DNA from: an uncultured Patescibacteria group bacterium | GTDB taxonomy: Bacteria; Patescibacteriota; Microgenomatia; UBA10105; UBA927 | Direction of reading: 5' to 3' | NCBI GenBank assembly: GCA_937921305.1 | Contig: CAKZSU010000006.1 | Coordinates: 1,089 to 65,088, forward strand | Length of the DNA stretch: 64,000 nt | In this document: piece by piece, positions 20,810 to 63,967 of the stretch | Layout: every line of letters starts with the position of its first letter | Position numbering within the stretch: position 1 is the first letter of the stretch | Program-made: the position numbers and the translations under genes | The notes under the pieces: generated by a model | What the model was told of the DNA's origin: nothing | The model's input: only the letters and a program-made list of their open reading frames with translations | The model's database searches: none

Positions 20810-22031
20810 ACTGCTTGAATATACCCAATGCGATGAGATCCGCAATTACAGCGACATGACTATCATTAAAATATCTACTTGTGTACCAGAATGAAAACAA
20901 AATTATTGCAAATCCAAGAAAAAATTTTGCAATGGAAGGATTTTTACTGAAAAACCGCAAAACAACCATTGTGGTCACGCCTCCCACGAGAATCTGCCAT
21001 ACGATAAAAGGATAATATTCATGAATATCATTAATCAATCTAAATTGATACAGCATCATCGATAATCCATACCCGCTTATAGGATACCCTCGTTCTCCGC
21101 CAGAGCTTAAATACCGAATCGTACTATCAATGAACGCGTTTGCATCCCACACAAGAAAAGGACCAACAAACAATCCAATGGTAATGAGAAACACAATACC
21201 TGATCGAACAATCGTCTTCCGTTGTGGAGTCGTATAAAACATATATAGGAGAAACAGTGGAGCGGCAAACCACATTGTTTGTTTGCTTAAGAACGCAAAC
21301 GCAAACGATATAGACGCAAGATATGGTCGTTTCTGATTTAGGAACAATAAACTTGCGACAAGAAAAAATAATGCAAAACTGTCGCTTCTACCTTCAATGA
21401 AAAAGTGAACAGACGCTGGAGAAAGCGATGCAAATACGATGGCAAGTTCCGCAAGGTCAAATTTCTTAAATAACCGCAAAAACATCCACCATATGCCAAC
21501 CATAAATACAACAAGAACCATTCTTCCATCGAAATAACCAAATATCCTATTTGCTAGCCAATAAAACGGAAATGGAACAAGTAAATACGCCGGTGGCATA
21601 ACAAAGTGATAGAGAGCAGGATTCACCGCGTCTTGATTTCCCGGCTCATCGTAATTAAACAATTCCACAGGAGTGCCAAAATATGTTTCTTTATATGGAT
21701 TCTTTCCTTGAAGGAGATATCGCATCGCCGCCTCTTGTTGCAGCACGATATCATGAACTTTCCACGAAGGCGCTACCACGTGCCGTTCATAAATAGCTCC
21801 AGTCGTCGCTCCCAAAAAAACAATCCCGAGAGATACCCAAAAAGAAACCAATCGAGCCTTTTGAAAACGGTCGGTGTAAAAAAGGGATGTCAACGCAAGA
21901 GTCATGAACGAAACAAGAAGAATACCATACAACCAATATTGATTTCCTTCCGTTGGAAACAACTTGTATCGCGTTATGACAGGAATGCTAAAAGAAAAGA
22001 GCAATACAGCCGTCAATGTCCTAAAATTCAT
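20793..22031 (-). CDS. Polytopic membrane protein, orphan (GT-C-like?). First gene of the minus-strand block.
   Basis: 412 aa with about 10 TM helices and no DE or HDG motif. It begins MNFRTLTAVLLFSFSIPVITRYKLFPTEGNQYWLYG. Confidence 0.35.
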   Translation of the reverse strand: MNFRTLTAVLLFSFSIPVITRYKLFPTEGNQYWLYGILLVSFMTLALTSLFYTDRFQKARLVSFWVSLGIVFLGATTGAIYERHVVAPSWKVHDIVLQQEAAMRYLLQGKNPYKETYFGTPVELFNYDEPGNQDAVNPALYHFVMPPAYLLVPFPFYWLANRIFGYFDGRMVLVVFMVGIWWMFLRLFKKFDLAELAIVFASLSPASVHFFIEGRSDSFALFFLVASLLFLNQKRPYLASISFAFAFLSKQTMWFAAPLFLLYMFYTTPQRKTIVRSGIVFLITIGLFVGPFLVWDANAFIDSTIRYLSSGGERGYPISGYGLSMMLYQFRLINDIHEYYPFIVWQILVGGVTTMVVLRFFSKNPSIAKFFLGFAIILFSFWYTSRYFNDSHVAVIADLIALGIFKQYDDLL

Positions 22032-25864: not shown

Positions 25865-25870
25865 AAAACT

Positions 25871-45559: not shown

Positions 45560-47078
45560 ATCGTTTCGGTATGAAAAATTTATAACCAAGCAATCCGCCG
45601 TAACACAGCATAAAACAGAGAGACGCGCTATTCGCGACAAATCGCGGAATCGTCTCTCGAAACTCGGCAAATATTTCGTGTTCTCCTTTGAGAACAAAAA
45701 AACGAATAAGACCATTTGGATTATCATAGGAGATCTTTTGCGGCAAACCATTGACCAACACACCCCATCCCGGATAATAAATCGAATTAATCTGAAGCAC
45801 GCTATCTTCTTCCGCAATAACGCGAGCTTTGATCGTTTGAGTAGTGGCAACATCAAACACAATCTTCCCTCGTCCTTGCTGAAAAATCATCCGTTTATAG
45901 GATCGCTCTGAGGGAATTTCTCGCACCCATCGCGGCATATATTCTCCTGAAACAGTTGTAGTTGACTCGTTTGTCGCGTAAAATCCTTCTGGATGATTCA
46001 TATACTCAATAAGGCGAAAAAACGAAAGCGCATGAGCGTAAAAAGAAATAATAACCAAAACAATATATAACATCCGAAACCTGTCTCTCAATACATCAAC
46101 TACCAACGCGATGAAATAAGCTGACAAAAAAATTGAAAGAGAAAACATTCGAAATGGAAATTGAAACAATCGAGCAAATGATTCAATTGACCAGACCCAT
46201 TGGGAAAAAGATGTTAATAAAAACAATAGAAAAATATTACTAAAAAAATAAAAAGATATGTACGATTTTTTTAGGAAAAAGATCAATAGCGATGATAATA
46301 GACCAATCGTTGGGAATAGATACGAGAATCGATTATCAAGAAAAAAACTTTGAGGATTTGAAATTATTTTTGAATCAAATATAACGTATCGTTTCTCATA
46401 TAGCGCAGGAAACCAAAAAAATGTCGCCATACCAATACCTAAACAAAATAACAAAATTCCCTTAATATTTCTTCGCAAAGCAAGAAGCAAAAGAAAAAAA
46501 CAACAGAATATCAATGCCACAGAATTATGACTAATAACAAGGAAAAACACCGCAGGAGCGATCAGCATATACCGTTGTCTTTCAATCGCGTACAACACTA
46601 TCGCCGCGAAAGAAAACGCAAGCACCTCGCCGACAGATCCCCGCTCGTAAAGATCAAATAAAAGATAAGGAGAAACAAGATAACTAACGCTGCCAATAAA
46701 CGCTGAAAATGGAGAAACAAATACCCGAAGCCAAAGATAAACAAAGATTCCAGAAATAATAACTGATCCCCCCATAATGATTTTCACAGCGTCAAGAAAA
46801 GAAAAACCAATACCATGAAGCATCGATCCGATGTACAAATATCCTGGATATAAAAAATTTGAAACAGGATATCCATAGCTATTGTTCAACCTTCCTAAAA
46901 ACCGAACAGGAAATTGTCCTTCTCGAAGACTTTGATAAAACGCCGAAAGACGAATAATCATCCAATCGCCATCGTGTGTCACGGGAAATCCCGAATGAAA
47001 CAATGGAATAAGAGAAGCACATGCGGCAAATATGACCGCAACAAGGAACACGATGTGTGTACGATTATGAATATTCAT
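45549..47078 (-). CDS. Family-B GT-C-like membrane protein
   Basis: THDGDWMIIRLSAFYQSLREGQFPVRFLGRLNNSYGYPVSNFLYPGYLY. The C-terminus has YYPGWGVLVNGLPQKISYDNPNGLIRFFVLKGEHEIFAEFRET. Confidence 0.55.
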   Translation of the reverse strand: MNIHNRTHIVFLVAVIFAACASLIPLFHSGFPVTHDGDWMIIRLSAFYQSLREGQFPVRFLGRLNNSYGYPVSNFLYPGYLYIGSMLHGIGFSFLDAVKIIMGGSVIISGIFVYLWLRVFVSPFSAFIGSVSYLVSPYLLFDLYERGSVGEVLAFSFAAIVLYAIERQRYMLIAPAVFFLVISHNSVALIFCCFFLLLLALRRNIKGILLFCLGIGMATFFWFPALYEKRYVIFDSKIISNPQSFFLDNRFSYLFPTIGLLSSLLIFFLKKSYISFYFFSNIFLLFLLTSFSQWVWSIESFARLFQFPFRMFSLSIFLSAYFIALVVDVLRDRFRMLYIVLVIISFYAHALSFFRLIEYMNHPEGFYATNESTTTVSGEYMPRWVREIPSERSYKRMIFQQGRGKIVFDVATTQTIKARVIAEEDSVLQINSIYYPGWGVLVNGLPQKISYDNPNGLIRFFVLKGEHEIFAEFRETIPRFVANSASLCFMLCYGGLLGYKFFIPKRYDR

Positions 47079-48580
47079 GGGAGGAAATGATGGACAATTG
47101 GTTGAGTAACGCGAAATAATCGAAGTTTCACTGTTGGATTTGTTCCCTTCTGATATTCGCCAATCAATTCAAGCGGCCAATCAGGGGGAGCGCCTTGTGT
47201 TTGATTAAGAATAAGATATGTTGGTCTCTTCAACGCAGATTGAACAATCTCTTGAGGCAATACTTCAGGTAATGGCCATATCCCCTTAATCATAACATTT
47301 GGATTGTTTGCCAAATATATTTCTAACGCGTAAGGAAATAATCCAAATGTTCCCTCTGTATACACTGCGATTGCTCCCTTCTTTGCTTCGCCTCTAAGAA
47401 ATTCAAGGGATTCCTTTACGCCGTATCCAGACGGCCAATCATCGATAAACTGTCCTCTGTCCGCGTACGGGATGGGAGCATACATTGGATTTGTAATAAT
47501 CACATATGAAGCCCACACCGAAGGTAAAAAAACAATCAATGAGAAAAAATTTTTATACCAACGAGATCGAAGAACAGAAAAGATATGATAAAACGAATAC
47601 GCGGCAAGAGGAAGAAGCGGCATAGACATAAATAAAATAAATCGAGGATATAACACTTTTCCAAAATATGCCAATCCAATCAATGGAAGAAAATAATATA
47701 AAAATAATAAAATCATACTTTTCTTTCGAAATGCGAGAGAGAAGAGCGCAAGAAACACAATAGGAATCGTCAAATATCCAATCAACCAGTCAAGCAATCC
47801 TCGAAGGTTTCCAAGAAAAAAAGGATAGAGGAAATAAAAATTCCTAAACGGATGAACAAACACAAAATCCTTCTGCGCGATCATATGAAAAAACGGAGAA
47901 AGACGAAGAATACCATATATAAGTTGAGAAATCACAAGTGATACAAACGCCAACCCGACCCAATGAAGCAATCGCTGTTTCCATCGCTTATGATGGAAAT
48001 CAAAAAGAATCAATATGATAGGCAATAGATACAATGCTATAAATCCAGATGTTTTATTCAACATTCCCGCTCCCAACGACATACCCAACAATAACGCGAC
48101 ATCCAATCGACGATACCGAACCAAAAGAATAGAAAAATAGAGACTCCATATCGCCAACGCTGCGGATAACGAATCATATAACGCAAGACGGTCATACGTA
48201 AGCGAAAAAGGAGAAAGTATATACATGAAAGCGACAATAAGAATGATTTTCTTTGAGCGAAAAAGTTCATAAGAAAGCATTACAAGTCCAACCAATGTTA
48301 ATGCTCCTGCAGATACGGAGACTATCCTACCCGCCAAAAGAGGATCGGCAAATAAACGCAAAGAAACCATCATTATCCACGGGAATAATGGCTGTTTTCC
48401 GTCAGTAAGAGAAATGAAGCGCCAATTCGGATCTTGTCCACCTATTTGCGCCCATCGAATGTAGATTGCCTCGTCGGTAAAAATCGGAAGCGCAGTAAGA
48501 TTAATACTTCTTGTCAGAAAATAGAGAAATAATATCCCAAATCCAATCAAAATCATTTTCCATGTCATTAAAAACTTCAT
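47075..48580 (-). CDS. GT-C-fold glycosyltransferase, PMT_2/GT39-like
   Basis: 501 aa. ...ALPIFTDEAIYIRWAQIG... is a DE-loop after TM1, followed by about 11 TM helices and a C-terminal soluble domain. Confidence 0.5.
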   Translation of the reverse strand: MKFLMTWKMILIGFGILFLYFLTRSINLTALPIFTDEAIYIRWAQIGGQDPNWRFISLTDGKQPLFPWIMMVSLRLFADPLLAGRIVSVSAGALTLVGLVMLSYELFRSKKIILIVAFMYILSPFSLTYDRLALYDSLSAALAIWSLYFSILLVRYRRLDVALLLGMSLGAGMLNKTSGFIALYLLPIILILFDFHHKRWKQRLLHWVGLAFVSLVISQLIYGILRLSPFFHMIAQKDFVFVHPFRNFYFLYPFFLGNLRGLLDWLIGYLTIPIVFLALFSLAFRKKSMILLFLYYFLPLIGLAYFGKVLYPRFILFMSMPLLPLAAYSFYHIFSVLRSRWYKNFFSLIVFLPSVWASYVIITNPMYAPIPYADRGQFIDDWPSGYGVKESLEFLRGEAKKGAIAVYTEGTFGLFPYALEIYLANNPNVMIKGIWPLPEVLPQEIVQSALKRPTYLILNQTQGAPPDWPLELIGEYQKGTNPTVKLRLFRVTQPIVHHFLP

Positions 48581-49909: not shown

Positions 49910-50662
49910 TTATTTATACAACCCTCGCCATGCGTTAAGCCGAATTGCAATAATATCCATAATCCCCTGAAGAGAGTCTTTGATGGGATTGACTCGCCTT
50001 GTCTCAACATAATGCCATTCTACCGGAACTTCCTTTATCTTGTATCCTTTTCTCTTTGCAACAAACAGAATTTCAATATCAAAACCAGCCGTAACCATCG
50101 CGCCGGAGACTTCGTGCCCTTTCCCATATCGCTTTAATGAACGGAATACATCATACGCGACTTCGCGACGAAACGCCTTAAATCCACACTGCGTATCAAT
50201 AATCCCGTGCAATCCAAGAATAATGCTTCGCAACGCCATAAAGCCTCGAGCCATAATCTTTCGTGACAATGGCGCTCCATGACGCTCACCACTTCTTGAG
50301 CCGATAACAACATCGTACCCTTTACCGAAAAATGGAAGCAATTTCCGAATCTCATGAAGCGGCGTTGCCTGATCAAGATCGGAAAATAATACGATATTCC
50401 CTTTTGCCGCAAGCATACCAGTAATAACTGTTGCCGCTTTTCCTTGATGAGGATTAAATATCGCCTGAAATCCTTTGTTTTGATCAACAAAATCGGCAAG
50501 CAACCGTTTTGTCATATCTGTCGATCCATCGTCAACAATAATCACTTCCCATGAAAAGAAAACATGCTGAAGATATCGAACAACCTTATCCAACGTACCT
50601 AATCGTATATTTGTTTCTTCATTGTACGCTGGAATAACAATAGAGATATCACATGGTTTCAT
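49910..50662 (-). CDS. GT2 polyprenyl-phosphate sugar synthase (DPM1-like)
   Basis: ISIVIPAYNEETNI...VIIVDDGSTDMTKRLL...GKAATVITGM...VLFSDLDQATP. Confidence 0.75.
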   Translation of the reverse strand: MKPCDISIVIPAYNEETNIRLGTLDKVVRYLQHVFFSWEVIIVDDGSTDMTKRLLADFVDQNKGFQAIFNPHQGKAATVITGMLAAKGNIVLFSDLDQATPLHEIRKLLPFFGKGYDVVIGSRSGERHGAPLSRKIMARGFMALRSIILGLHGIIDTQCGFKAFRREVAYDVFRSLKRYGKGHEVSGAMVTAGFDIEILFVAKRKGYKIKEVPVEWHYVETRRVNPIKDSLQGIMDIIAIRLNAWRGLYK

Positions 50663-52257
50663 TCTTCTCCTTTGTAATGAACGAGCTTAAATAATTTTAC
50701 TGGAAAGACATCCTTTTCTTCGACAATTTCCGCTCTTCCAAACCCAGCAACCTCCCAGCTAGCATGCCCTAATGGCTGACATGATGGATTTTCACAGATA
50801 ACAATAAGCTGATCGGTCACAGTTGTTCGTTCTGGATCTACGGACGGTTGTTGAATAACAATCGGCGATCTTCCCCATATTTCAAAGAAATATCGATATG
50901 CATGATCGGAGTTTGTCGCCGTGATTAATGCAAAATTAAATGGTTTTCCTTCCGAGAGATCCAACGCCGCCTTCGCGATTCGTTTTGTTTGCTCCAATTG
51001 ATTATTCGGAGGGTACATAAATGGTCTTCCCTGCCAATTATAGTAAAACAGTCCGCCCCATACGAACAAGCCAATCGCAATTCCCGCTTTTGTTTTCATA
51101 AGTTGCCAAAGAACAATGCCCACCGCAATAAACGGAAACGCAAAAAAAATGCCGAAGTAATAATCATAAATACTTCGCTGATAAAATCCAAACGACAAAA
51201 TAGACCATAAAAACCATCCAGATAATAACATTGCTCCCAACCATTGCTTACGCGTCAGTATATTTTGCGAAGATTTCCGAATAAAACGAATACTCATATA
51301 GACCACAACACCAATTGAAATATAGAGCGTCGTACGTATCAATATGACTAAAAGATTGATATACCAATCAGAATATCCATTCCACACTTCATATTGAGGC
51401 ATGCGAAACAACAACCGTCCATAAGAACGAAACGTAACATCATGAACAATCTCGATGAATTTTCCTGGAACAAACACTGTTTCATTTCCTCCCAGAAAAA
51501 AATTGATAAGCGCTGTTGTATTGGGAAACGAATGGCGAAATTCAAACGCCACAAACGGGGAAAGCATAAGAAAAAATCCACAACACCACACCGCAATATG
51601 CTTAAAAAGCGACCTTATTGAAGAAACAATAAGAATCAATAAAGAAAACGCGATGAGTATTGAATATAAATAATGAAATTGGATACCCATCCCAGACACC
51701 ACCCCAATAAAAAAAACAAGGATTGTCTTCTTCTGAACAATGAATCTCCATAAAAGGTAGAGAAGAAGCAAGGAAAAAAAAGGCACAAGGTTAGGATTCC
51801 ACGATGATCGAGCATACGCGATCACCAAGGGAGAAACAGCATATAAACTCGCTCCAACAAGCCCGACAACAGGATGAAACATTGTGCTTCCCACATGAAA
51901 GACTAAATAAATTGTCGCAATTCCGAATAACGCGACCATAATCGCGGGACCAACTGGATCAAGATTCCACAACCAAAGAAACGGCGCCATGAAGTAGTAA
52001 TACAATGGTCCAAGAAAGAATCCGCCGACCGACGCTGTTGGCCCAAGAAAGACCATGTCTCTATCAACGATCATCCGTTTCACAATTAATACATCTCTTC
52101 CTTCATCGCCTAAAAACGTTAAATACTCATGAATACGATGTAATCGAAGATATGCGCCAAGGAGCATAATTATTGTTATGCAAGAAATCAGAAGATGCTT
52201 TAAAGAACTACAATTCATGAGTGTAGTATACCTTACACCAATCTCTTTTTTCTCCAA
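50659..52257 (-). CDS. GT-C-like polytopic membrane protein with a DE motif (ArnT/PMT-like, orphan)
   Basis: 532 aa. ...HEYLTFLGDEGRDVLIVKRMIVDRDMVFLGPTASVGGFFLGPLYYY... after TM1, then about 11 TM helices. Confidence 0.5.
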   Translation of the reverse strand: MEKKEIGVRYTTLMNCSSLKHLLISCITIIMLLGAYLRLHRIHEYLTFLGDEGRDVLIVKRMIVDRDMVFLGPTASVGGFFLGPLYYYFMAPFLWLWNLDPVGPAIMVALFGIATIYLVFHVGSTMFHPVVGLVGASLYAVSPLVIAYARSSWNPNLVPFFSLLLLYLLWRFIVQKKTILVFFIGVVSGMGIQFHYLYSILIAFSLLILIVSSIRSLFKHIAVWCCGFFLMLSPFVAFEFRHSFPNTTALINFFLGGNETVFVPGKFIEIVHDVTFRSYGRLLFRMPQYEVWNGYSDWYINLLVILIRTTLYISIGVVVYMSIRFIRKSSQNILTRKQWLGAMLLSGWFLWSILSFGFYQRSIYDYYFGIFFAFPFIAVGIVLWQLMKTKAGIAIGLFVWGGLFYYNWQGRPFMYPPNNQLEQTKRIAKAALDLSEGKPFNFALITATNSDHAYRYFFEIWGRSPIVIQQPSVDPERTTVTDQLIVICENPSCQPLGHASWEVAGFGRAEIVEEKDVFPVKLFKLVHYKGEE

Positions 52258-53357
52258 ATAACTTTTGAATACATCGCATAGTTATAAAACAACCCTATCC
52301 CAACGCCAATGATGTAGAACAATCGATACCACGAAACGCCAAAGAGATGCGTTCCAATAAACACTGAACTTCCTTGAATGAGGATTGCGCCAAGCGCAGA
52401 AAGATTAAACTGGAAAAATTTTATTAAATACCTTCCGTGCTGAATTTTTCTATCGCGAAATGTCCACGCGTTATTGAAAATAAAATTCGAAATAATCGCA
52501 CATTCAGCGCCAATAACGCTTCCAATACTTGGGTGCAATCCAATAAGATGAACTGCAATCTCCAAAACAATCGTATTGATGATAAATCCAAAACCGCCTA
52601 CAACAAGAAACTTTTTAAAGTTTCCATAACGAAGCCAAATAAGACGCTGACGAAATACATATGCAAACACATCTCTGATATATTCAGACGGAGCTATCTT
52701 CGAATGACCAAATTTTCTATCAACAAATCGTATTGGAATTTCTTTAATTCTTGCTCCTGCTAACACTGCGTTGTGCAAAAACGCGATTTGAAACACATAA
52801 CCGGAATATTTTGCTACCTTTTGTTTATTTAATTCATAATATTTTTTATAAAATGCACGATACCCTCCTGTCCAATCATGCAAATATGAACATCCAAGAC
52901 CAAATCGAACAAACATATTACCAACCACGCTAAATATTTTTCTATGAATGCCCCAATCAGAAGGAATCGCGCCTCCCGGAATATATCTGCTTCCCACAGC
53001 TATATCATATCCATCATCCAATGCTTGAATAAACGAGGGAAGCACTGCTGGATCGTGTGAAAGATCAGCATCCATCTGTACAATAATATCTGCGCCCAGT
53101 TTCTCTACCGCATAGGTCATTCCTCGCAACAACGCCTTCCCTAATCCTTGTTTTTCCCCTATGAGAAGATGAACATCGTTATGCGTCTTCGCGTATTCTT
53201 TTACTGCGTCAGCCGTGCCATCGGGAGATGTATCATCAACCACAAGATAAGAACATGAATGATGAGGAAAAGAGGAGAACGCTTCCCGCGCTTTTTCCAA
53301 CAAAACGAGAATCGTATCCCGCTCATTATATGTGGGGAGAATAAGAACGACATTCAT
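52233..53357 (-). CDS. Bifunctional-architecture GT2 polyprenyl-phosphate sugar synthase fused to a C-terminal GtrA-like 4-TM domain
   Basis: 374 aa. N-terminal VVLILPTYNERDTI...YLVVDDTSPDGTADAVKEY...GLGKALLRGM...IIVQMDADLSHD. The C-terminal approx. 120 aa have four hydrophobic helices (FLVVGGFGFIINTIVLEIAVHLIG...), as in GtrA/Ppm1-type fusions. Confidence 0.7.
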   Translation of the reverse strand: MNVVLILPTYNERDTILVLLEKAREAFSSFPHHSCSYLVVDDTSPDGTADAVKEYAKTHNDVHLLIGEKQGLGKALLRGMTYAVEKLGADIIVQMDADLSHDPAVLPSFIQALDDGYDIAVGSRYIPGGAIPSDWGIHRKIFSVVGNMFVRFGLGCSYLHDWTGGYRAFYKKYYELNKQKVAKYSGYVFQIAFLHNAVLAGARIKEIPIRFVDRKFGHSKIAPSEYIRDVFAYVFRQRLIWLRYGNFKKFLVVGGFGFIINTIVLEIAVHLIGLHPSIGSVIGAECAIISNFIFNNAWTFRDRKIQHGRYLIKFFQFNLSALGAILIQGSSVFIGTHLFGVSWYRLFYIIGVGIGLFYNYAMYSKVIWRKKRLV

Positions 53358-53390
53358 ACGAAGAGCGGGTAAACCGCATAAATCATTCTG

Positions 53391-54350
53391 CTATACATGC
53401 TCCCGCCAATAATTCAAAAGATCAGCCATGGTTTGTTCAAGCGGGATCATTGGTTGCCATCCTGTTTTCTGAACAAACTTTGTATTGTCTCCGATCAAGA
53501 CAGGAACATCCGACGGTCTCATCCTTGCCGGATCTTCTTTTATCTCTACCTTAACTTTACTCATACCAAGAAGCATCGTGAGGACATCTCCAATCCTCTC
53601 TGCTCTTCCTGTGCAAATGTTATAAACCTCTCCGGGGTCACAGTGCTCGACAGCGAGAAGATATCCCTTTACCATGTCGCGAACATCGGTATAATCCCGT
53701 TTTGCGTCAAGATTCCCCACATAAATCACCGGATCTTGTTTCTTTTTCTCTATCAGCGCAATCTGTTTCGCGAAGTTTGATTCAGCGAATGTGTCTCCTC
53801 GTCGAGGACCGGTATGATTAAATCCTCTTGTCCGCACAATTTTCAAACCATACGACTGATAATATTGATACCCTAAATAGTCCATTGCAACTTTTGAAAC
53901 AGCGTATGGAGAAAGCGGACGAAGCGGATTCGTTTCTTTTATTGGAAGCTCATTTTCGTACACCATGCCGTACTCTTCCGAGGAACACGCGATTTGAATA
54001 ACGCAATCAAGCTTTGCCCGTTTCACAGCTTCAAATAAATTCGCTGATCCAATAATGTTGACATCAAGCGTTACAGCGGGAGACACCCATGAAGTAGGGA
54101 CAAATGATTGGGCGGCAAGATGAAAGATGACATCAGGCCGAATACGTTCAATAGAGCTGTATAAACTATGCGAATCAAGGAGATCTGCCTCTTCAAGTTT
54201 TAATTTATCTTGAATATGTACAATGTGATCAAGCTTGCTTCGAACGCGAACATAACCGTACACTTCGTATCCTTTCTCTAGCAATAATTCCGCCATATGG
54301 CTTCCAACAAATCCAGCAATACCGGTAATAAGCGCTTTTTTCTTTTCCAT
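53391..54350 (-). CDS. NAD(P)-dependent SDR of the GDP-mannose 4,6-dehydratase / GDP-4-keto-6-deoxymannose reductase (Gmd/Rmd) family
   Basis: ALITGIAGFVGSHMAELLLEKGYEV...SPYAVSKVAMDY...RGFNHTGPRRG...YVGNLDAKRDYTDVRDMV...EDPARMRPSDVPVLIGDNTKFVQKTGWQP. These align with the Gmd/Rmd core. GFVGSH rather than GQDGSY favours the short Rmd-like/archaeal-type enzymes. Confidence 0.6.
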   Translation of the reverse strand: MEKKKALITGIAGFVGSHMAELLLEKGYEVYGYVRVRSKLDHIVHIQDKLKLEEADLLDSHSLYSSIERIRPDVIFHLAAQSFVPTSWVSPAVTLDVNIIGSANLFEAVKRAKLDCVIQIACSSEEYGMVYENELPIKETNPLRPLSPYAVSKVAMDYLGYQYYQSYGLKIVRTRGFNHTGPRRGDTFAESNFAKQIALIEKKKQDPVIYVGNLDAKRDYTDVRDMVKGYLLAVEHCDPGEVYNICTGRAERIGDVLTMLLGMSKVKVEIKEDPARMRPSDVPVLIGDNTKFVQKTGWQPMIPLEQTMADLLNYWREHV

Positions 54351-54390
54351 AGTCCTCCTTCTTATAAATCATTATAAACGATATTGTATA

Positions 54391-55689
54391 CTACATCCTT
54401 CCAACGCCATAGTACATATACCCTAACTTTTTAACAAACTCTGGATCATAAATGTTTCGACCGTCAAACAAAACCCGTTGTTTCAATCCTTTTGCAAGGC
54501 GAACAAGATCAAGGTTTCGAAACTCGTTCCACTCAGTAATCACCGCTACCACATCCACATCTTGGCAAGCGGAATACGGATCTTTTGCATAAATGACAGA
54601 AGACGGAAGAACTTTTTTTGCGTTTTCCATTGCTACAGGATCAAAGACGATAATGTCAGCTCCATGATTGAGAAGTTTTTCAATAATCGTGATCGATGGA
54701 GCTTCTCTCATATCGTCGGTGTCTGGCTTAAAAGAAAGACCAAGAATAGCGACTCTTTTTCCATGAATGTTTCCTTCAAAGTGCCTCAATATCTTTTCCA
54801 CGAAATGGTCTCTCATGGAGTGATTGACCTCATCAACCGCCTCAAGAAGACGAAAATCATACCCATGCCCCTTTGAAAGCGCAATCAATGCCTTCACATC
54901 TTTTGGAAAACAACTCCCTCCGTAGCCAACACCAGGATAGAGAAAACTTCTTCCAAGTCGACTATCAAGACCTACCCCCTCTAACACTTTTTCCGCATCC
55001 GCACCAACTCGTTCTGAAAGAACAGCGATCGCATTAGCAAAGGATATTTTTGTTGAAAGAAGCGAATTTGATGCATATTTAATAAGCTCCGCCGTCTCTA
55101 CATTGCATAAGACAAGGTTTGTGTTAATCGGTTTATGGAGATCAATCAACATATCTCTCGCTCGATCCGATGTTGTCCCAATCACGACGCGATCTGGATG
55201 CAATGTATCATGGATAGCGGTGCCTTCGCGAAGAAATTCCGGACACGAAGCAATGGCAAAACTTGCTCCCGGAGGTTTTACTTTTGCAAGAATTTCCCCA
55301 ACTTTCTTGTTGGTTCCCGGAGGCACCGTGCTTTTTGTGACAACCACTTTGTAACCCACTAAATTTTTTCCAATTTTTTCAGCAGCGGCGAAGACATTCG
55401 TCAAATCCGCTTCTCCTGACGGTTTCGGAGGCGTCCCAACGCAAATAAAGATAATTTCAGAAGGGACTACTGCTTCTTTATAATCCAATGTAAATAACAA
55501 TCGCCCCACGTCCACATTTCTCTTTACCAAATCAGATAATCCTGGTTCATAAAATGTCGCTTTTCCCTGCTTTAATATTTCTATTTTCTCTTTTGTTCTT
55601 CCCACAACCCATACAGTGTTGCCAAAATCGGCGAATACCGCGGCGGTAACAAGTCCAACATATCCATGACCAATAAATGCTATTGTCAT
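54391..55689 (-). CDS. ugd: UDP-glucose 6-dehydrogenase (nucleotide-sugar dehydrogenase family)
   Basis: MTIAFIGHGYVGLVTAAVFADFGN... (N-terminal Rossmann fold) and the ...GYGGSCFPKDV... catalytic-Cys motif of UDP-Glc/GDP-Man dehydrogenases. 432 aa. Confidence 0.8.
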   Translation of the reverse strand: MTIAFIGHGYVGLVTAAVFADFGNTVWVVGRTKEKIEILKQGKATFYEPGLSDLVKRNVDVGRLLFTLDYKEAVVPSEIIFICVGTPPKPSGEADLTNVFAAAEKIGKNLVGYKVVVTKSTVPPGTNKKVGEILAKVKPPGASFAIASCPEFLREGTAIHDTLHPDRVVIGTTSDRARDMLIDLHKPINTNLVLCNVETAELIKYASNSLLSTKISFANAIAVLSERVGADAEKVLEGVGLDSRLGRSFLYPGVGYGGSCFPKDVKALIALSKGHGYDFRLLEAVDEVNHSMRDHFVEKILRHFEGNIHGKRVAILGLSFKPDTDDMREAPSITIIEKLLNHGADIIVFDPVAMENAKKVLPSSVIYAKDPYSACQDVDVVAVITEWNEFRNLDLVRLAKGLKQRVLFDGRNIYDPEFVKKLGYMYYGVGRM

Positions 55690-58307: not shown

Positions 58308-58580
58308 TTAAATAAAGAGGACAGTATATAATATCGCCAATCCAATCCCGGCAATCAACACGTATTCTATCATAACCTTGACATATAAATCACCTTCAAT
58401 ATAGTGATAGACAATCCCCCACAAAATATACGACATCGCGGCGATAAATCCTACAAGGAACTGGAGATCTGGTTTCCCCTGAAAAAGAGAAATTGCAAGA
58501 ATCGTAAATCCAAAAATAATACAAAGAACAAGTGGATGAAGATATGTATGATGAATAATGTTTTTATTATGATGCTTCAT
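58308..58580 (-). CDS. Small 3-TM membrane protein, hypothetical
   Basis: The likely start is MKHHNKNIIHHTY..., where an ATGA-type overlap with the stop of the CAP gene is expected. It has three hydrophobic helices. The track ORF extends to 58694 inside the upstream gene. Confidence 0.35.
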   Translation of the reverse strand: MKHHNKNIIHHTYLHPLVLCIIFGFTILAISLFQGKPDLQFLVGFIAAMSYILWGIVYHYIEGDLYVKVMIEYVLIAGIGLAILYTVLFI

Positions 58581-59503
58581 AAGACGCTTCCATGAATAAT
58601 CATATTGCTTGCGATCAAGATTGCCAAGAAAAATAATCCATGGGCGAAGGTCGATCCAACAGCTCGAACTTTCTTCTTCTTTGCCATAATCCATATATCC
58701 AACAACAACACGCCAAGAAACATGCCTCCGAACATCATCGTGATATCTCGACGCACTTTTACAACATCAACCTGTGGCATAGAGATAACGGATGGAAACG
58801 GAATCTCATTGATAGACGCCGCAACTTGCGGAACTTCAACAGAATTTGTCGGCGATCCAGCATCAGCAATCATCGATTCAGATGCAGTAGATTCTTCTGT
58901 CGGCTCATCTACCGCTTGACTTACCGGACGAGCGGACGGACGAGCGCCAAACATTTGCACCACAAGTGTTGTTTCTTCTCCTTGAAGTTTTCCATTCACA
59001 ACAGCGAATCCAACATCTTTGTATCCCTTTTTAAGGATATTATCCCGATGACTCGAAGACGCCATCCATGCGTTGACAACGCCGGTGCTATCCTGAAAAT
59101 TCTTCGCCAAATTTTCACCTGCGACGGTATATTTATACCCAGAAGCAACAATAAAATCCCACGGCGTCTTTCCATCAGGAGACACATGTGCCCAGTAATT
59201 TTTTGCAAACATATCTTCTGCTTTTTTCGCAGCCGCTTGAGACAATTGCTGATCAAGACGAAGGGGAGACAATCCAGCCTCTATCCGTTTTTCATTAGTT
59301 TTTCTTAATAATTCCTGGACTTGAATATTTGTCGCGTATCCCAACACATCAGGAAACCATTGTGTCATCATCCGAAGACCAATATTTATGACAAGAAATG
59401 CCAATAAATACAGCATCAAGACATCGATGTGCAACGCCTTTGCCCTATGATTATTGCCGTGATGAGGGATAAACAAATGCTTTACCAACGAAAGAAGACT
59501 CAT
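58577..59503 (-). CDS. CAP/SCP (PR-1-like) domain protein with an N-terminal TM anchor and a C-terminal TM segment
   Basis: ...NEKRIEAGLSPLRLDQQLSQAAAKKAEDMFAKNYWAHVSPDGKTPWDFIVASGYKYTVAGENLAKNFQDSTGVVNAWMASSSHRDNILKKGYKDVGFAV... matches the CAP domain motifs (HxxNxxR, GENL, HRxNIL). There are hydrophobic segments near both termini. Confidence 0.65.
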   Translation of the reverse strand: MSLLSLVKHLFIPHHGNNHRAKALHIDVLMLYLLAFLVINIGLRMMTQWFPDVLGYATNIQVQELLRKTNEKRIEAGLSPLRLDQQLSQAAAKKAEDMFAKNYWAHVSPDGKTPWDFIVASGYKYTVAGENLAKNFQDSTGVVNAWMASSSHRDNILKKGYKDVGFAVVNGKLQGEETTLVVQMFGARPSARPVSQAVDEPTEESTASESMIADAGSPTNSVEVPQVAASINEIPFPSVISMPQVDVVKVRRDITMMFGGMFLGVLLLDIWIMAKKKKVRAVGSTFAHGLFFLAILIASNMIIHGSVL

Positions 59504-59553: not shown

Positions 59554-60123
59554 TTATTGTTGAGGAATAGCGTACACAACACGACGTTTTTGATCAAATG
59601 CGCCTTCGCAGGTATACAATGTTAATCGATTATCCTCAGAAAAGATAGCCTCCACATCATGTTTTGATACCGTTTTTGATTCAATTACTGTATACAAATG
59701 ACTTCTCTCTCCTTGATGCAATTCAATTGCATCGCCGGGGACAAGTTTATGGAGATCGCCCCACAAATTTTTCCAGTTATGCGCATACAAAATCACATTC
59801 CCTTCGCCGGGAACCGCGGATGTAGAAAGCCACGCAACGCTAGTATCAAACAGTTGCCACGCGTTATCTTTAACAATTGCTGCTTGAATAACATGCTGTT
59901 TATTAATTTTTGGAATATAGATGCTTGTTGGCGGTTGTTTTGTTGTGCTTTTCCTCTCGTGCTGATCCACAAGATCGACTACGAATGAAGCGTTCATAGG
60001 CACATAAAACTGTTGATCGCGAATTGTCGTTGCAACCCGATAAGAAGTATAAAAAAGAACTGCTGGAACCAGAAAGACAAAAAGACGAATAATCTTATCG
60101 CGAAAATTTATGATATATGCCAT
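59554..60123 (-). CDS. Sortase-family transpeptidase
   Basis: 189 aa with an N-terminal TM anchor, ...VILYAHNW... (catalytic His region) and ...NRLTLYTCEG... (the TLxTC catalytic-Cys motif). Confidence 0.7.
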   Translation of the reverse strand: MAYIINFRDKIIRLFVFLVPAVLFYTSYRVATTIRDQQFYVPMNASFVVDLVDQHERKSTTKQPPTSIYIPKINKQHVIQAAIVKDNAWQLFDTSVAWLSTSAVPGEGNVILYAHNWKNLWGDLHKLVPGDAIELHQGERSHLYTVIESKTVSKHDVEAIFSEDNRLTLYTCEGAFDQKRRVVYAIPQQ

Positions 60124-61219
60124 AGAAGATCGTTCCCATTAATAAAGACATCGCTATGGCACTGTATTGGTCTAATCGACCCGTCGCGCCCAAAACATCT
60201 GTAGAAACACCCAACACCTGTCCTCCGCCAATCGAAGTAGACACTCCTAACACTTGACCGCCATTTCCAACAGATCGCTCGTCAGAAGGATCTCCCGGCA
60301 TGCAATCATTGATTCCGCGAACTTGAAAATAATATGTCGCGTTGGGATCCAAACCTCCTATGACAAACGATGTGATATTTCCCGTAGAAGGAACGCCAAA
60401 TTGATAACTCCCAGAAGATAATCCATAGGATATCGCATATGTTGTTACCGGAGCAACTTCTGTCCACGATAAACTAACCGTCGTTGGACTCGTTCGAGTA
60501 ATCGACGTAATCGATGGCTTTGCTGGTTTTCCCGCAGGACACTGTTGCGCTGTTGGATTCGTATTCGATCCGCCACCATTTGATCCTGAAGAAGATTGTG
60601 ATTGAGATGTCGGCATCGGTGTTGGCAACGAAGATGGAGACATCAGCGGTGTTGGCGTTATTGTTGGCGTCGGTCCGCCAGTATTACCCTCATTACATGG
60701 TTCGGCGTTAACCGCTCTCACGCCATCAACATCATATCCATCGGCAATGTCATCGGTAAAAATCGTCGGATCGCTGATATCTGTTATTCTGACATAGTTT
60801 ACACATGAGAATCCGCTTGGCATATCGACTTGTCCATCTTGGACAACTGTTCCAGCGAGAACCCAATTGACACCATCTTGAGATACTTCTATTCTTGCAC
60901 GCTCCTCTGGATAATTTGGCCAAGTAGATTCAACAACAATCACCCCATCACGAACGCCATTATCAAAACGAAGTACGATATTCCCGCCAAACCCAAGGGA
61001 AAAGAAATATCCATCGACATTACTATTTTCCGCCGGACCAAGCGCGGAAGAAGGATTGCTTCGTATTGCCGGCACTGGATTGCCATTCTTCATTAATCCT
61101 TGTGAATAGGAGATAACCTCGTCAGCCCATGGACCCAAGCCATCGGGTGTCGCAGCGAAAACAATAAAAAAAGACAACGAAACAAAAAAGAATAGTGAAA
61201 GAAAAAAGAGTTTTTTCAT
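60095..61219 (-). CDS. Secreted surface protein. Signal peptide, jelly-roll/lectin-like N-domain, Pro/Thr/Ser-rich linker, fibronectin type III domain, and a C-terminal sorting-signal-like tail.
   Basis: The likely start is MKKLFFLSLFFFVSLSFFIVFAA (signal peptide). The linker is TPTITPTPLMSPSSLPTPMPTSQSQSSSGSNGGGSN. The FN3-like region is PSITSITRTSPTTVSLSWTEV...YYFQVRGIND. The C-terminus is ...GGQVLGVSTSIGGGQVLGVSTDVLGATG-RLDQYSAIAMSLLMGTIFYGIY-HKFSR (motif, hydrophobic stretch, basic tail). Confidence 0.6.
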   Translation of the reverse strand: MKKLFFLSLFFFVSLSFFIVFAATPDGLGPWADEVISYSQGLMKNGNPVPAIRSNPSSALGPAENSNVDGYFFSLGFGGNIVLRFDNGVRDGVIVVESTWPNYPEERARIEVSQDGVNWVLAGTVVQDGQVDMPSGFSCVNYVRITDISDPTIFTDDIADGYDVDGVRAVNAEPCNEGNTGGPTPTITPTPLMSPSSLPTPMPTSQSQSSSGSNGGGSNTNPTAQQCPAGKPAKPSITSITRTSPTTVSLSWTEVAPVTTYAISYGLSSGSYQFGVPSTGNITSFVIGGLDPNATYYFQVRGINDCMPGDPSDERSVGNGGQVLGVSTSIGGGQVLGVSTDVLGATGRLDQYSAIAMSLLMGTIFYGIYHKFSR

Positions 61220-61270
61220 CCTATATTTTTTTAATAGGGGTATTATATAGAGAAGAATTATTTTTGTCAA

Positions 61271-61461
61271 ATTCAGTACTCGTTTTTTTCTTAAATACCT
61301 ATTTTTTAAAATATTTATTATTTATTGCAGATACAGCATAAAATTTAACATTATAAATAATAATATATTATTGATGATTACAAAAAAATAGTAATATTCT
61401 TCATATATACTTCTCTATATCGATCGTTAATTAAACACTTTCTGTATCAAATTAAGAAAAA
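61271..61461. promoter_or_regulatory. AT-rich 190-bp intergenic region upstream of the surface-protein/sortase operon. Probable promoter.
   Basis: It is more than 80% A+T, with several TATAAT/TATATA-like hexamers and long T/A runs. It is the largest non-coding gap in the window. Confidence 0.4.
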
Positions 61462-62775
61462 CTATGTATGTTCTATAGGTGCATAGAAAAGAAAAAAGAA
61501 GAAAGGGAAACGCGTTTTTAAAAATTTCATGACCTTAAATATAAATGTTTCATGCAAGTAAGGAAGGGTAATCATATTCTTCCCTTCAGACAACTGAATA
61601 TCAGTCGTATGAACATATGGACTCGAAACTGTCGCTACTTCTCCGTTATACATCAAGGGCAATCGAAACAACCCAGTTGCATCTGTGACGATATTTCTAT
61701 ATCGCGTCTCAATAAATATCTCACTAAGAGGTTTGCCAAGTTCATCTCGAACGATTCCAAACGCTTGTTTCGGTCGATAAAATTCCTCAAGAACCGATAT
61801 TCCTTTTTTTCTTTTCCCATCGATTGTTATAAGCTCTGTTGAACCCCCAGTGCTTACCCAATAATTTACCCCAATAACATCTAGATGTTCGACAAATACT
61901 TCAAGAAATTCTCGGAGAAGACTTGCTTGAGCTTCTTCTGAAAGTTTTCCATGAATATCAGGAATTGGCAACCCAAATTCTCCTATCATGATTTTCCCCT
62001 TGCTTCGGTCTGCGTACCGTTTTAAATCTTGTCTCATTTTTTCTGGCGTTTTTACATAATGATCAATCGTGACAACCCCATCAAGAGCGCTCGTCATCTC
62101 CTCGTCCATGATCAGAAACGCGACATCGCCATTCATAGAGTATAGATTTGCTTGGACGCGTTTATTTATTCGGTCAAACGATTCTTTCGCGATCGCATAT
62201 TCCTCCAGTAAGAATCGTTTAAATCCCTCGACATCTCCCGTCATTCGCGGATCGCCTGGACCGCCATTTTCACATTCTGGACAAGAAGTAAAAAGATCGC
62301 CATCTTCAAATAATAGAGAATTATTCAAAATAAATTCTTTCAATTGTTTCTTATGTTCTTCTCGTGTCATTTTTTTGTATCCAAACCATTCTTCCCATCC
62401 AGAGAAATTACCTCGAAACCAAATATTTAATTTTTCCGCTCTTGCATAGTGAACCCATCGTTTCATAAATGGAATAAATTCATTATCATAGGGTGTCGCA
62501 ATAGCGATATGCGTCGCGCCAATATCTTTCGCCAATAAAACTTGACGCTTGATAATTTCATCAAACGACTTGTCATTTCGCTTCTCTTGCGCGACATCTC
62601 GAGAAAATTTCATCGTATCAATAGAGCGAATCTTCCACCACCCAGTCAATGACTCACCATCTAATCCTTTTGCATGAATACCATCAGGAAAAAAAGCGAA
62701 CCCCATGAGGCATATCACAATGATGAAGCGGCGAAAGAAACAAAAAAGAAAAAAGACAATTCGTTGTCTATTCAT
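61462..62775 (-). CDS. Membrane-anchored glycoside hydrolase, clan GH-A-like TIM barrel (family unresolved)
   Basis: 437 aa. N-terminal TM (FFLFCFFRRFIIVICLMGFAFF), ...GATHIAIATPYDNE... and ...KIMIGEFGLPIP... resemble the NE acid/base and (I/V)xEFG nucleophile motifs of clan-A GHs. Confidence 0.45.
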   Translation of the reverse strand: MNRQRIVFFLFCFFRRFIIVICLMGFAFFPDGIHAKGLDGESLTGWWKIRSIDTMKFSRDVAQEKRNDKSFDEIIKRQVLLAKDIGATHIAIATPYDNEFIPFMKRWVHYARAEKLNIWFRGNFSGWEEWFGYKKMTREEHKKQLKEFILNNSLLFEDGDLFTSCPECENGGPGDPRMTGDVEGFKRFLLEEYAIAKESFDRINKRVQANLYSMNGDVAFLIMDEEMTSALDGVVTIDHYVKTPEKMRQDLKRYADRSKGKIMIGEFGLPIPDIHGKLSEEAQASLLREFLEVFVEHLDVIGVNYWVSTGGSTELITIDGKRKKGISVLEEFYRPKQAFGIVRDELGKPLSEIFIETRYRNIVTDATGLFRLPLMYNGEVATVSSPYVHTTDIQLSEGKNMITLPYLHETFIFKVMKFLKTRFPFFFFLFYAPIEHT

Positions 62776-63967
62776 TGCTTTGATTATATCGTTCGCGAAT
62801 AATTTTTCCTATCAACGCGCTTCCTGGAAATTTATATGCTGTTTTCCAATCAGACTTTCCCCAATGACCCATAAAATTATCCTCATTCGCCATCTGCCAT
62901 ACGCCGTGCGCACCATACGCGTGCCCGCACGCGCCATAACGAAGAGAAATGTCAATCGCTTCCTTCTGATGCTTTTCGCCAAAATTACTTCGTATCCCTT
63001 CATACCATGGTTCAAGATTAATGATTGGTACGCCTTCGCGCTGCGCTTCCCGCAACGCGGATATCATAAACAATCTTCCATCTTCGCTATGCCCTGACTG
63101 AATACTATCGATATCAAGCCATGAAGGATAATGAAATAATACAAACGCTCGCATCCTCTTATGCGGATGGACCATGAGTATTCTACCGTAAGGATCATGA
63201 TCCTTAATCCATTGCCCCACGCGACTCCATTGGGCTATACGTTTTCTAAGCAAAAAAGAAGAGAAGAGATCTTTCCATCGAGACATATGCCAAAATATAT
63301 CTACTTCTCCTGCCAAACAAAACATCACAGGATATGACGCATATCTTGCTATAATTTCTTTCCACAAACGAATTACCCTTCGTACCCCAATCACATCTAT
63401 ATGATGACCCCATCCGCCAAATATGCACGGCACCATTCCATACTCAATAATCATTTGAATCCTGTTGTCAACTTCATCAAAATAGGAAGGATTGATCGCA
63501 AACGTTTTTGTAAATGGATGACCGCCATCGTTTTCTGCCTCGTGAGAGAAAAAGGGAATTTCAGGAGGAACGCCAACGATGCATTGAACAGCTGTAAACC
63601 CTTTCTTCTTTCTATCTTTTAATAAAGTTTTAAGATCGATTCGAGACGCTCGATTCGTCATGCCATACCACCATGTATCAGCAAGATAGAAAAATGGCGT
63701 GTTATCATCGTGGATAAGATGTCTTCCTGATACTTTTATTGGTCCATGAAAAAACAACTTGTTCTTCCCTTTATATGGAACAACACGATATGTTTTTCCA
63801 TTTGATAATCGAATAATTCCTACCTCTGAAGAAGAAAATCGGACACACCATGCGCGATTACCCTTTTGAAATGGCATAGCGAAAATTATCTTCCCTGATG
63901 GAAGGATCACCGCAAGGGGATTTTTTGATGCTTCTTCAATCGTTTGATACCGAGTTATTGTTTCCAC
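62768..63967 (-). CDS. DUF4038/GH140-like glycoside hydrolase
   Basis: 399 aa. ...DNTPFFYLADTWWYGMTNRAS...KKGFTAVQCIVGVPPE... resembles the N-terminal 'ffwLGDTaW' signature of the DUF4038 (GH140) TIM-barrel family. No signal peptide. Confidence 0.45.
   Translation of the reverse strand: METITRYQTIEEASKNPLAVILPSGKIIFAMPFQKGNRAWCVRFSSSEVGIIRLSNGKTYRVVPYKGKNKLFFHGPIKVSGRHLIHDDNTPFFYLADTWWYGMTNRASRIDLKTLLKDRKKKGFTAVQCIVGVPPEIPFFSHEAENDGGHPFTKTFAINPSYFDEVDNRIQMIIEYGMVPCIFGGWGHHIDVIGVRRVIRLWKEIIARYASYPVMFCLAGEVDIFWHMSRWKDLFSSFLLRKRIAQWSRVGQWIKDHDPYGRILMVHPHKRMRAFVLFHYPSWLDIDSIQSGHSEDGRLFMISALREAQREGVPIINLEPWYEGIRSNFGEKHQKEAIDISLRYGACGHAYGAHGVWQMANEDNFMGHWGKSDWKTAYKFPGSALIGKIIRERYNQSNE

Follow-up and report, generated by a model that had tools for sequence, protein, structure and literature searches.

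A sortase gene overlapping the gene of its probable substrate, a lectin-like surface protein, in a glycan gene island of an uncultured Patescibacterium

Most Patescibacteria are uncultured episymbionts, and their attachment to host cells is poorly understood. A stretch of 64,000 nucleotides from an uncultured member of this group (also called the Candidate Phyla Radiation, CPR), referred to below as the window, carries a sortase gene that overlaps the gene of a predicted surface protein, close to a large number of glycosyltransferase genes. This raises the question whether the enzyme and the surface protein belong together, and whether the surface protein is also a target of the neighbouring glycosyltransferases. 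We read the two genes as a self-contained sortase and substrate cassette of a Microgenomatia-type Patescibacterium, which would place a lectin-like protein on the cell wall, and we give this reading a probability of about 0.72. The cognate pairing of enzyme and substrate, already proposed in the initial annotation of this DNA, is strongly supported: the two genes are adjacent, with overlaps, in related loci, the sorting motif is invariant, the catalytic residues His115, Cys172 and Arg180 of the sortase are intact, and the same tail is found upstream of homologous sortases.

The gene pair and the sortase

Both genes of the cassette are on the minus strand. The surface-protein gene (60095..61219) starts with ATG at 61219, stops at 60095-60097 and encodes 374 amino acids (aa) plus the stop codon. 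The sortase gene (59554..60123) starts with ATG at 60123, stops at 59554-59556 and encodes 189 aa. Both open reading frames (ORFs) lie where the initial annotation had placed them, and their overlap is 29 bp (60095..60123), as given there; it suggests translational coupling of the two genes. On the same strand, 22 nt from the ATG of the surface-protein gene, lies a sigma-70-type promoter, TTGACA-17-TATAAT (61242..61270), predicted from its consensus match with 12 of 12 positions identical. It is located in an AT-rich intergenic region (61220-61461) upstream of the surface-protein gene. A public gene call (P0001) gives the surface protein a length of 391 aa, starting at a TTG at 61270. Since this TTG falls in the -35 box of the promoter, the ATG at 61219 was preferred. 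The longer call was rejected because its start codon belongs to the -35 hexamer of this perfect promoter, and also because the orthologs begin at the MKK position; P0001 probably has 17 codons too many. A length of 374 aa is likewise given by an independent ENA/NCBI gene call. The 565-kb contig ERZ6864144 c_000000188073 contains an identical cassette. No terminator-like site was seen between the sortase gene and the next gene, which encodes a CAP-domain protein.

The downstream gene encodes, judging by its profile matches, a bona fide sortase. The Pfam model Sortase (PF04203, peptidase C60) matched residues 68-185 with 69.2 bits (cut-off 26.6; 3.5e-19), and an alignment of the catalytic region was obtained with Listeria SrtA 5hu4 (2.6e-7) and with B. 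anthracis SrtA 2kw8. The catalytic residues His115 (59779-59781), Cys172 in LTLYTC (59608-59610) and Arg180 (59584-59586), all encoded on the minus strand, are invariant in 26 homologs. A hydrophobic stretch (IIRLFVFLVPAVLFYTSY) at approximately aa 11-28 was read from the sequence as an N-terminal transmembrane (TM) anchor. By curated thresholds, the enzyme is outside classes A-F: the best NCBIfam class model was that of class E (NF033747), with 37 bits against a cut-off of 160, and the scores for classes C, F, D, SrtD and GN were below the class E score. As the sortase is below all class cut-offs, its specificity is not transferable from a characterised class. A pilus-type (class C) reading was rejected, with a single substrate, no pilin-like motif seen and 33 bits against the class C cut-off of 160. 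Exosortase, archaeosortase and rhombosortase signals were rejected as well, as the enzyme belongs to PF04203 and the surface protein ends in a tail with a TG pentapeptide. Sortases are reported to be common in CPR genomes, and a Microgenomates genome has been described as not Gram-negative in structure and as encoding peptidoglycan synthesis (PMC6851277, PMC7143001). The literature searched gave no description of the substrates or sorting signals of CPR sortases.

Immediately downstream of the substrate gene, the sortase gene is present in 11 orthologous loci (L001-L006, L011-L014 and L027), in which the substrates, where not identical, share 47-58% identity. Where gene calls exist, the two genes overlap by 4-29 bp (4-20 bp in L002, L003, L005, L006 and L027). 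The recurrence of this adjacency in 11 orthologous loci shows that the pair is not a chance juxtaposition. At three loci a conserved protein of approximately 170-185 aa, with an N-terminal TM segment and a GxGxG motif resembling that of S-adenosylmethionine (SAM)-dependent methyltransferases, is encoded after the sortase (L087:2380-2892, L088:2258-2815 and L027:11546-12085). The L027 copy has a weak DOT1 match, and in the window this position is filled by the CAP-domain protein.

The surface protein and its sorting signal

An AlphaFold (AF2) model of the surface protein, built on 84 homologs, had a predicted local distance difference test (pLDDT) score of 82. It consists of a helix (residues 2-15), a beta-sandwich modelled with very high confidence (approximately 25-175), a disordered stretch (185-225), an FN3 domain (228-318), a second disordered stretch (320-346) and a TM helix (349-373). 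The domain order in the initial annotation was largely upheld: the N-terminal beta-rich domain is the modelled beta-sandwich, and the FN3 domain and the C-terminal anchor signal are present; the signal peptide was accepted by eye. This peptide (aa 1-22, 61154..61219, minus strand; MKKLFFLSLFFFVSLSFFIVFA followed by ATPDG) has MKK, a hydrophobic core and a predicted cleavage site between VFA and AT, and its A-A-x-PDG junction is conserved among orthologs.

The N-terminal domain (aa 23-176, 60692..61153, minus strand) forms the head of the protein. Its model has a galactose-binding-like jelly-roll fold of the CBM32/discoidin type, with structural neighbours at 6-17% identity, and Cys139 and Cys175 are invariant. 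No Pfam model matched within residues 23-176, including F5_F8_type_C (PF00754); a few distant Bacteroidota homologs of the domain do contain PF00754. On the strength of the modelled fold, the head domain is probably glycan-binding. Elsewhere, the domain is combined with LPNTG tails beside different sortases (L007), with sorting domains of the type IX secretion system (T9SS) in Bacteroidota, or occurs without an anchor. Two of the orthologous loci (L002:9113-9925 and L003:9057-9884) have a paralog with a CBM32-like head directly upstream of the FN3/LAxTG gene. Its C-terminus is rich in Thr, Asn and Lys and has no sorting signal, and the window has no such gene.

The head is followed by a disordered linker (aa 177-226, 60542..60691, minus strand; pLDDT <50), consisting of a (Pro-Thr)n core and a part rich in Ser, Asn and Gly, which is a candidate region for O-glycosylation. 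A linker of 40 aa had been reported. The quoted string is present and 36 aa long. Disorder extends over the full 51 aa from the invariant Cys175 to the likewise invariant Cys227, a stretch with 37% Ser plus Thr and 18% Pro. The FN3 domain (aa 227-318, 60266..60541, minus strand) was assigned both by Pfam (fn3, PF00041, above cut-off at 2e-9, residues 234-314) and by its beta-sandwich fold; Cys227 and Cys306 are invariant.

The C-terminal part of the protein has the layout of a sorting signal. A disordered spacer (aa 319-342, 60194..60265) with the tandem motif GGQVLGVST ... GGQVLGVSTD-V precedes the pentapeptide LGATG (aa 343-347, 60179..60193), in which sortase chemistry predicts cleavage between Thr346 and Gly347. 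The remainder (60098..60178, likewise on the minus strand), RLDQYS-AIAMSLLMGTIFYGIY-HKFSR, comprises a short spacer, a hydrophobic helix of approximately 20 residues and the basic tail HKFSR, and would be the membrane-retention part of the signal. The peptide QVLGVSTDVLGATGRLD would be a putative substrate of the sortase. Approximately 30 full-length orthologs of the surface protein were found, all from Patescibacteria where named (Woesebacteria, Gottesmanbacteria, 'Patescibacteria group'). The tail of the 27 aligned orthologs reads GGQVLGAST-x-GGQVLGASTD-x-L[GA]ATG; V335, L336, G337, T340, L343 and G347 are invariant, T346 is kept in at least 90%, and the pentapeptide is L[GA]ATG in 24 of the 27. 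The TM segment after it varies freely in sequence, with hydrophobicity and a basic end kept in all orthologs.

These data bear on the alternative that the C-terminal segment is an unprocessed membrane anchor, that the sortase acts on other proteins and that the overlap is incidental. The motif is indeed not LPXTG, no curated anchor model matches (NCBIfam gave no match of an LPXTG model of the TIGR01167 type to the surface protein at E <=0.01), and the window offers no other substrate, as no other ORF in it has such a sorting signal. However, VLG..T and the pentapeptide after it are invariant, in contrast to the helix, which varies; this argues for a processed sorting signal rather than a plain membrane anchor, and the adjacency to the sortase gene is conserved in all 11 orthologous loci. 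The same tail also occurs on unrelated passengers, whose genes likewise lie directly before those of homologous sortases: the tail-bearing proteins P0260 (L087:999-1811) and P0263 (L088:1081-1740) precede sortases that are 61-62% identical to that of the window. We therefore consider a plain anchor highly improbable.

How widely the tail is distributed was seen in an exhaustive HMMER search with a 45-column profile of the tail against 1.84 billion representative proteins (E <=0.001). The profile matched 65 representative proteins, at the extreme C-terminus in all but 2 of the 56 that were newly retrieved. A CBM32-like domain was present in 3 of these 56 and an FN3 domain in 5; the tail, C-terminal on mostly other passenger proteins, is thus a portable sorting module. 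Pentapeptides in the tail family include LAATG, LGATG, MAGTG, MAKTG, LADTG, YAATG, FAPTG and similar ones, mostly [LMFY]AxTG. A word-indexed search with the same profile gave 17 short fragments and was uninformative, and cluster entries for ten of the tail-bearing proteins carried no product names. A VLG element also precedes the pentapeptide in other substrates from Patescibacteria (GVLGLASTG, SFLGLATTG, GGQVLGAVLGLAFTG and EVLGVK..EVLGFKELPATG; loci L017:4565-5152, L022:8959-9588, L027:7477-8169 and L054:7568-11494). This suggests that the recognition motif extends beyond five residues. A subfamily of the tail-bearing proteins (P0260, P0263 and similar) has a conserved block, GDGLSD-x-KSDGGSSCPSCTAPP, just before the QVLGAST repeat; its Cys residues are paired and may be joined by a disulfide or coordinate a metal.

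In the mechanism we propose, both genes are transcribed from the one promoter and are probably translationally coupled. The 374-aa protein would be exported by the Sec pathway and retained in the membrane by its C-terminal helix and basic tail. The membrane-anchored sortase, with Cys172, His115 and Arg180, would then cut LGATG between Thr346 and Gly347 and transfer the protein to a peptidoglycan precursor. The expected product is a wall-anchored stalk, made of the tandem QVLG(A/V)ST spacer, the FN3 domain and the disordered Pro/Thr/Ser linker, with the CBM32/discoidin-like head at its tip, which might serve as an adhesin toward a host cell or a polysaccharide.

Several points weigh against this account. 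The sortase is far below every class cut-off (37 against 160 for class E). Its putative target pentapeptide does not have the canonical Pro, and the LPXTG model did not match. Glycan binding by the head would follow from fold similarity at 6-17% identity, without a match to F5_F8_type_C.

The locus yields a clean enzyme-substrate pair, a defined, portable signal (the QVLGAST repeat with [LMFY]AxTG) and a lectin-like head, which together enable a genome-wide census of displayed surface proteins.

The glycan island and the linker

The window is an almost uninterrupted glycan island, with many GT2 and GT4 glycosyltransferases, two Wzx-type flippases, RmlA, RmlB and RmlD, a UDP-glucose dehydrogenase (UGDH) and further short-chain dehydrogenases/reductases (SDRs). 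Such content (flippases, GT2/GT4, dTDP-rhamnose genes and UGDH) is normal for a wall or capsular polysaccharide locus. Seven ORFs pass the gathering scores of the Pfam models PMT_2 and/or PMT, and two more are just below. Five enzymes resembling protein O-mannosyltransferases (PMTs) had been claimed, which is an undercount by these Pfam scores. The island had also been described as rich in other glycosyltransferases of the GT-C fold, and indeed three YfhO-type and three PTPS_related-type proteins were found.

Just upstream of the cassette on the minus strand are the genes of a 437-aa membrane-anchored protein resembling glycoside hydrolases, with a C-terminal TM segment (61462-62775), and, upstream of that gene, of a GH140 apiosidase-like protein (62768-63967). 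With the fold of the head domain, these neighbours allow another link between cassette and island: the head could tether or organise the surface polysaccharide of its own cell by binding to it, or could be part of a surface module that binds and degrades glycans, together with the 437-aa and GH140-like proteins, in foraging or in attacks on a host. The 437-aa protein has homologs, accompanied by GH140 or not, that are located beside cassettes of the N-terminal domain and a sortase in L002, L012, L017, L022 and L027, and another lies approximately 5 kb from an N-domain gene in L055; the CBM32/discoidin fold itself and the second, unanchored head-domain paralog directly upstream in L002 and L003 point the same way. 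However, the matches of the 437-aa protein were non-significant (GH10, E 0.035; CarboxypepD_reg, E 0.072) and PDB gave none, the ligand is not inferable from the fold, and the co-occurrence may stem from the shared ancestry of closely related genomes. We consider a link of either kind unlikely. More generally, going by the modelled fold, the displayed protein may bind a host, environmental or own glycan and need not be a target of glycosylation.

The next genes downstream of the cassette encode, in this order, the CAP protein, a 90-aa membrane protein, RmlA, RmlB, RmlD, UGDH, an SDR, a GT2 protein with a GtrA_DPMS_TM domain, and PMT_2. From CAP to PMT_2, this order is kept in eight loci (L001-L005, L011, L012 and L014; in L002 and L012 the PMT_2 gene is at or beyond the end of the locus), with substrate identities of 51-58%. 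The CAP/YkwD-domain protein (58577-59503, minus strand) has a C-terminal TM region and a weak match to the divisome-associated lipoprotein DalA, and the 90-aa membrane protein after it (58308-58580, minus strand) is DUF5656-like. Both genes follow the sortase gene in the eight related loci too, and may share its transcription unit.

Outside these eight loci, the Rml/GT2-GtrA/PMT_2 block is lost in L006, L013 and L027. All 11 orthologous loci nevertheless touch some glycan genes. In L006, genes of a pyruvyl transferase and of GT2/GT4 enzymes precede the cassette and a Wzy_C gene follows it; the upstream genes include those of RmlC and a sugar C-methyltransferase in L013, and those of a pyruvyl transferase, GH140 and the homolog of the 437-aa protein in L027. 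No called glycan genes were present around the cassettes of L087 and L088 (short contigs of 3-5 kb) or around the LPNTG paralog in L007. The link between sortase and substrate is thus universal, and the link with glycan genes is frequent in the orthologous group and not obligatory. Part of the latter may be inherited synteny.

The candidate for extracytoplasmic glycosylation that is nearest to the cassette is the pair formed by the GT2 gene with GtrA_DPMS_TM, a predicted polyprenyl-phosphate-sugar synthase (52233-53357), and the PMT_2 gene that follows it (50659-52257), together spanning 50659..53357 on the minus strand. This PMT_2 gene, the nearest one, is eight genes, or approximately 7 kb, away from the cassette. 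The best NCBIfam matches of the GT2-GtrA protein were weak (ArnC, 57 bits; PgfS, 55 bits; AglJ; PpgS). All four are polyprenyl-phosphate-sugar synthases, which fits an extracytoplasmic transfer step as far as such matches go, without naming the target. The run of UGDH, an extended SDR (319 aa, below every NCBIfam cut-off), GT2-GtrA and PMT_2 (50659-55689, minus strand) resembles an Arn-type pathway, in which a sugar derived from UDP-glucuronate is loaded on polyprenyl phosphate; the organism is expected to be without lipid A.

The matches of the GT-C enzymes to PMT and PMT_2 (PF02366 and PF13231) were weak, at 24-54 bits. For PF02366 (cut-off 22.7), the scores were 44 for 29129-30838, 35 for 19190-20845 and 29 for 47075-48580, with 15913-17559 below the cut-off at 21.7; the remaining PMT-type paralogs matched the generic PMT_2 model alone. 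PMT_4TMC (PF16192) had no match in any GT-C ORF of the window at E <=0.001. NCBIfam gave sub-threshold Agl23 matches for four of eight PMT-type paralogs and nothing for the other four, and a PDB sequence search with two PMT_2 paralogs gave no match. As these PDB and NCBIfam searches returned nothing above cut-off, sequence does not place any GT-C in GT39, GT83 or another family. In the first extracytoplasmic loop, six of the eight paralogs that were aligned have an Asp-Glu pair in register, and a seventh (50659-52257) has one with a slight offset; this motif is common to other GT-C families and so does not discriminate for PMT. A model of the paralog with the best PMT score had as structural neighbours ALG12 (19.3), ArnT (18.1), PglB (18.1), Pmt4 (16.3) and Pmt2 (15.3), with STT3 also above the last two. 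Pmt4 and Pmt2 ranked 5th and 8th, so that PMTs are not the closest relatives, and since ALG12, ArnT, PglB and STT3 score slightly above them, the fold does not identify the acceptor.

Against this background we weighed the proposal of the initial annotation that the island is, at least partly, a protein O-glycosylation system for sortase-anchored adhesins. In the form considered here, the linker would be O-glycosylated outside the cytoplasm by GT-C enzymes of the island using polyprenyl-phosphate sugars made by GT2-GtrA, in addition to being part of the anchored stalk. The surface protein is the sole one of the 52 ORFs in the window with a segment rich in Ser, Thr and Pro (a fraction of 0.76 in a 25-aa window; next best 0.44), which gives it a Ser/Thr-rich, disordered extracytoplasmic region (residues 177-226) of the kind that is modified in streptococcal systems. 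There, the Pgf system of S. mutans, composed of one GT-A enzyme, two of the GT-C fold and an epimerase, acts on the Thr-rich region of Cnm, an LPXTG adhesin, with pgfS located just downstream of cnm (PMC5856776), and in other streptococci GtrB and the YfhO-type GT-C PgtC2 glucosylate Ser/Thr-rich disordered regions (PMC12041528). Candidate counterparts of the Pgf and GtrB-PgtC2 enzymes in the window are GT2-GtrA and the three YfhO-family ORFs, at 18-55 bits to the Pgf models against cut-offs of 500-1500. The GT2-GtrA gene adjoins a PMT_2 GT-C gene, the order from cassette to PMT_2 is conserved in eight loci, and all eleven touch glycan genes. Over 27 orthologs, the (Pro-Thr)n and Ser/Asn/Gly character of the linker is kept despite sequence turnover, with 19-54% Ser plus Thr, against 14-24% elsewhere in the protein, and other tail-bearing substrates have Pro/Thr-rich linkers too.

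On the other hand, Pro/Thr-rich linkers are generic spacers, and this one is loosely constrained both in its length (17-53 aa) and in its Ser plus Thr content. No GT-C enzyme of the window could be assigned to a protein acceptor, as PMT_4TMC, NCBIfam and PDB sequence searches gave no match above cut-off, and structural neighbours with glycan, lipid A and protein acceptors scored alike. The island carries the full content of a polysaccharide locus; the block is lost in three of the orthologous loci, and no glycan genes are called close to the tail-bearing genes of L087 and L088 or to the LPNTG paralog. A search of the literature on protein glycosylation in CPR/Patescibacteria found nothing relevant. 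We regard O-glycosylation of the linker by enzymes encoded in the window as a tentative and rather unlikely proposal. It is reasonable to treat it as a compatible addition, suggested by the genomic context, that is unneeded to explain the sortase and substrate cassette. If true, it would provide a function for some of the orphan GT-C paralogs of CPR, and the extracytoplasmic O-glycosylation of Ser/Thr-rich disordered regions known from Gram-positive bacteria would extend to a very distant lineage.

A broader idea combines both parts: the QVLGAST-[LMFY]AxTG tail could be the general signal of a Patescibacteria-specific sortase lineage outside classes A-F, with the Pro/Thr/Ser stalks of its substrates, among them the CBM32-FN3 protein, O-glycosylated outside the membrane by an expanded set of GT-C enzymes fed by GT2-GtrA synthases. 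This we consider doubtful. On this view, the adhesins of CPR cells would be glycoproteins anchored to the wall, and the GT-C expansion in CPR, so far unexplained, would be accounted for in part.

Some other features of the island were observed. Five consecutive genes of large membrane proteins (22065-30838) form the only plus-strand block of the window; one product has no Pfam match and the others are of the YfhO, PMT_2 (just below cut-off), PTPS_related and PMT types. ORFs of 500-570 aa without any Pfam match include 10420-12045, 34142-35848 and 45549-47078. Nearly all genes are on the minus strand, the GC skew is negative in every 2-kb bin, and the G + C content rises from 0.28 at the left end of the window to approximately 0.42 at the right. 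For a Microgenomates genome, the two strands have been reported to differ strongly in composition (PMC7143001).

Comparison with known systems

Among known glycosylation systems, S. mutans Pgf (PgfS, PgfM1/PgfM2 and PgfE, acting on Cnm and WapA; PMC5856776, PMC12041528) is similar in that a sortase-anchored adhesin with a Thr-rich region is encoded near GT2 and GT-C genes. The likeness extends weakly to the enzymes, with 55 bits between GT2-GtrA and PgfS and a C-terminal match of a YfhO-type protein to PgfM1/M2. However, the scores to PgfS, PgfM1 and PgfM2 (18-55 bits) compare with cut-offs of 500-1500, and the substrate gene is eight genes away from the GT2-GtrA/GT-C pair, whereas cnm is immediately adjacent to pgfS.

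Actinobacterial O-mannosylation (Ppm1 and a GT39 Pmt) likewise combines a polyprenyl-phosphate-sugar synthase with a GT-C enzyme that has an Asp-Glu pair in loop 1, and Pro/Thr-rich regions are typical acceptors of actinobacterial Pmt. In contrast, the PF02366 matches in the window are weak and without PMT_4TMC.

The order UGDH, SDR, GT2-GtrA and PMT_2 in the window resembles a pathway of the kind that decorates lipids and wall polymers (ArnC/ArnT, GtrB/GtrC, CsbB/YfhO), in which a sugar is loaded on polyprenyl phosphate and transferred outside the membrane. Among the structural neighbours of the modelled paralog, ArnT ranks second. The lipid A acceptor of ArnC/ArnT-type systems is, however, not expected here, because the Sec signal, the sortase and peptidoglycan point to a Gram-positive-like envelope.

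With sortase A and LPXTG proteins (S. aureus, Listeria, B. anthracis), the cassette shares the tripartite signal of a TG-ending pentapeptide, a hydrophobic stretch and a basic tail. It differs from them in its motif, which has no Pro and does not match TIGR01167, and in its sortase gene, which is dedicated to the substrate gene and overlaps it, whereas SrtA is a housekeeping enzyme with many substrates, encoded away from them.

The cassette also resembles the class E sortases (S. coelicolor SrtE1 and Corynebacterium SrtF), for which LAXTG is the substrate motif (PMC5148588). As in these, position 2 of the pentapeptide is Ala or Gly instead of Pro (here L[AG]ATG), and the enzyme is membrane-anchored with a His/Cys/Arg triad; class E was also the best, though sub-threshold, NCBIfam model. 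The sortase of the window is much shorter (189 aa), is from Patescibacteria rather than Actinobacteria, and belongs to a tail family in which position 1 of the motif is also M, F or Y. To our knowledge, the tandem QVLGAST element is not part of class E signals. The cassette is an ordinary instance of a well-known mechanism, and what it adds is modestly new: an LAxTG-type signal with a tandem QVLGAST element, the portability of this signal across passenger proteins, and a sortase lineage outside the curated classes.

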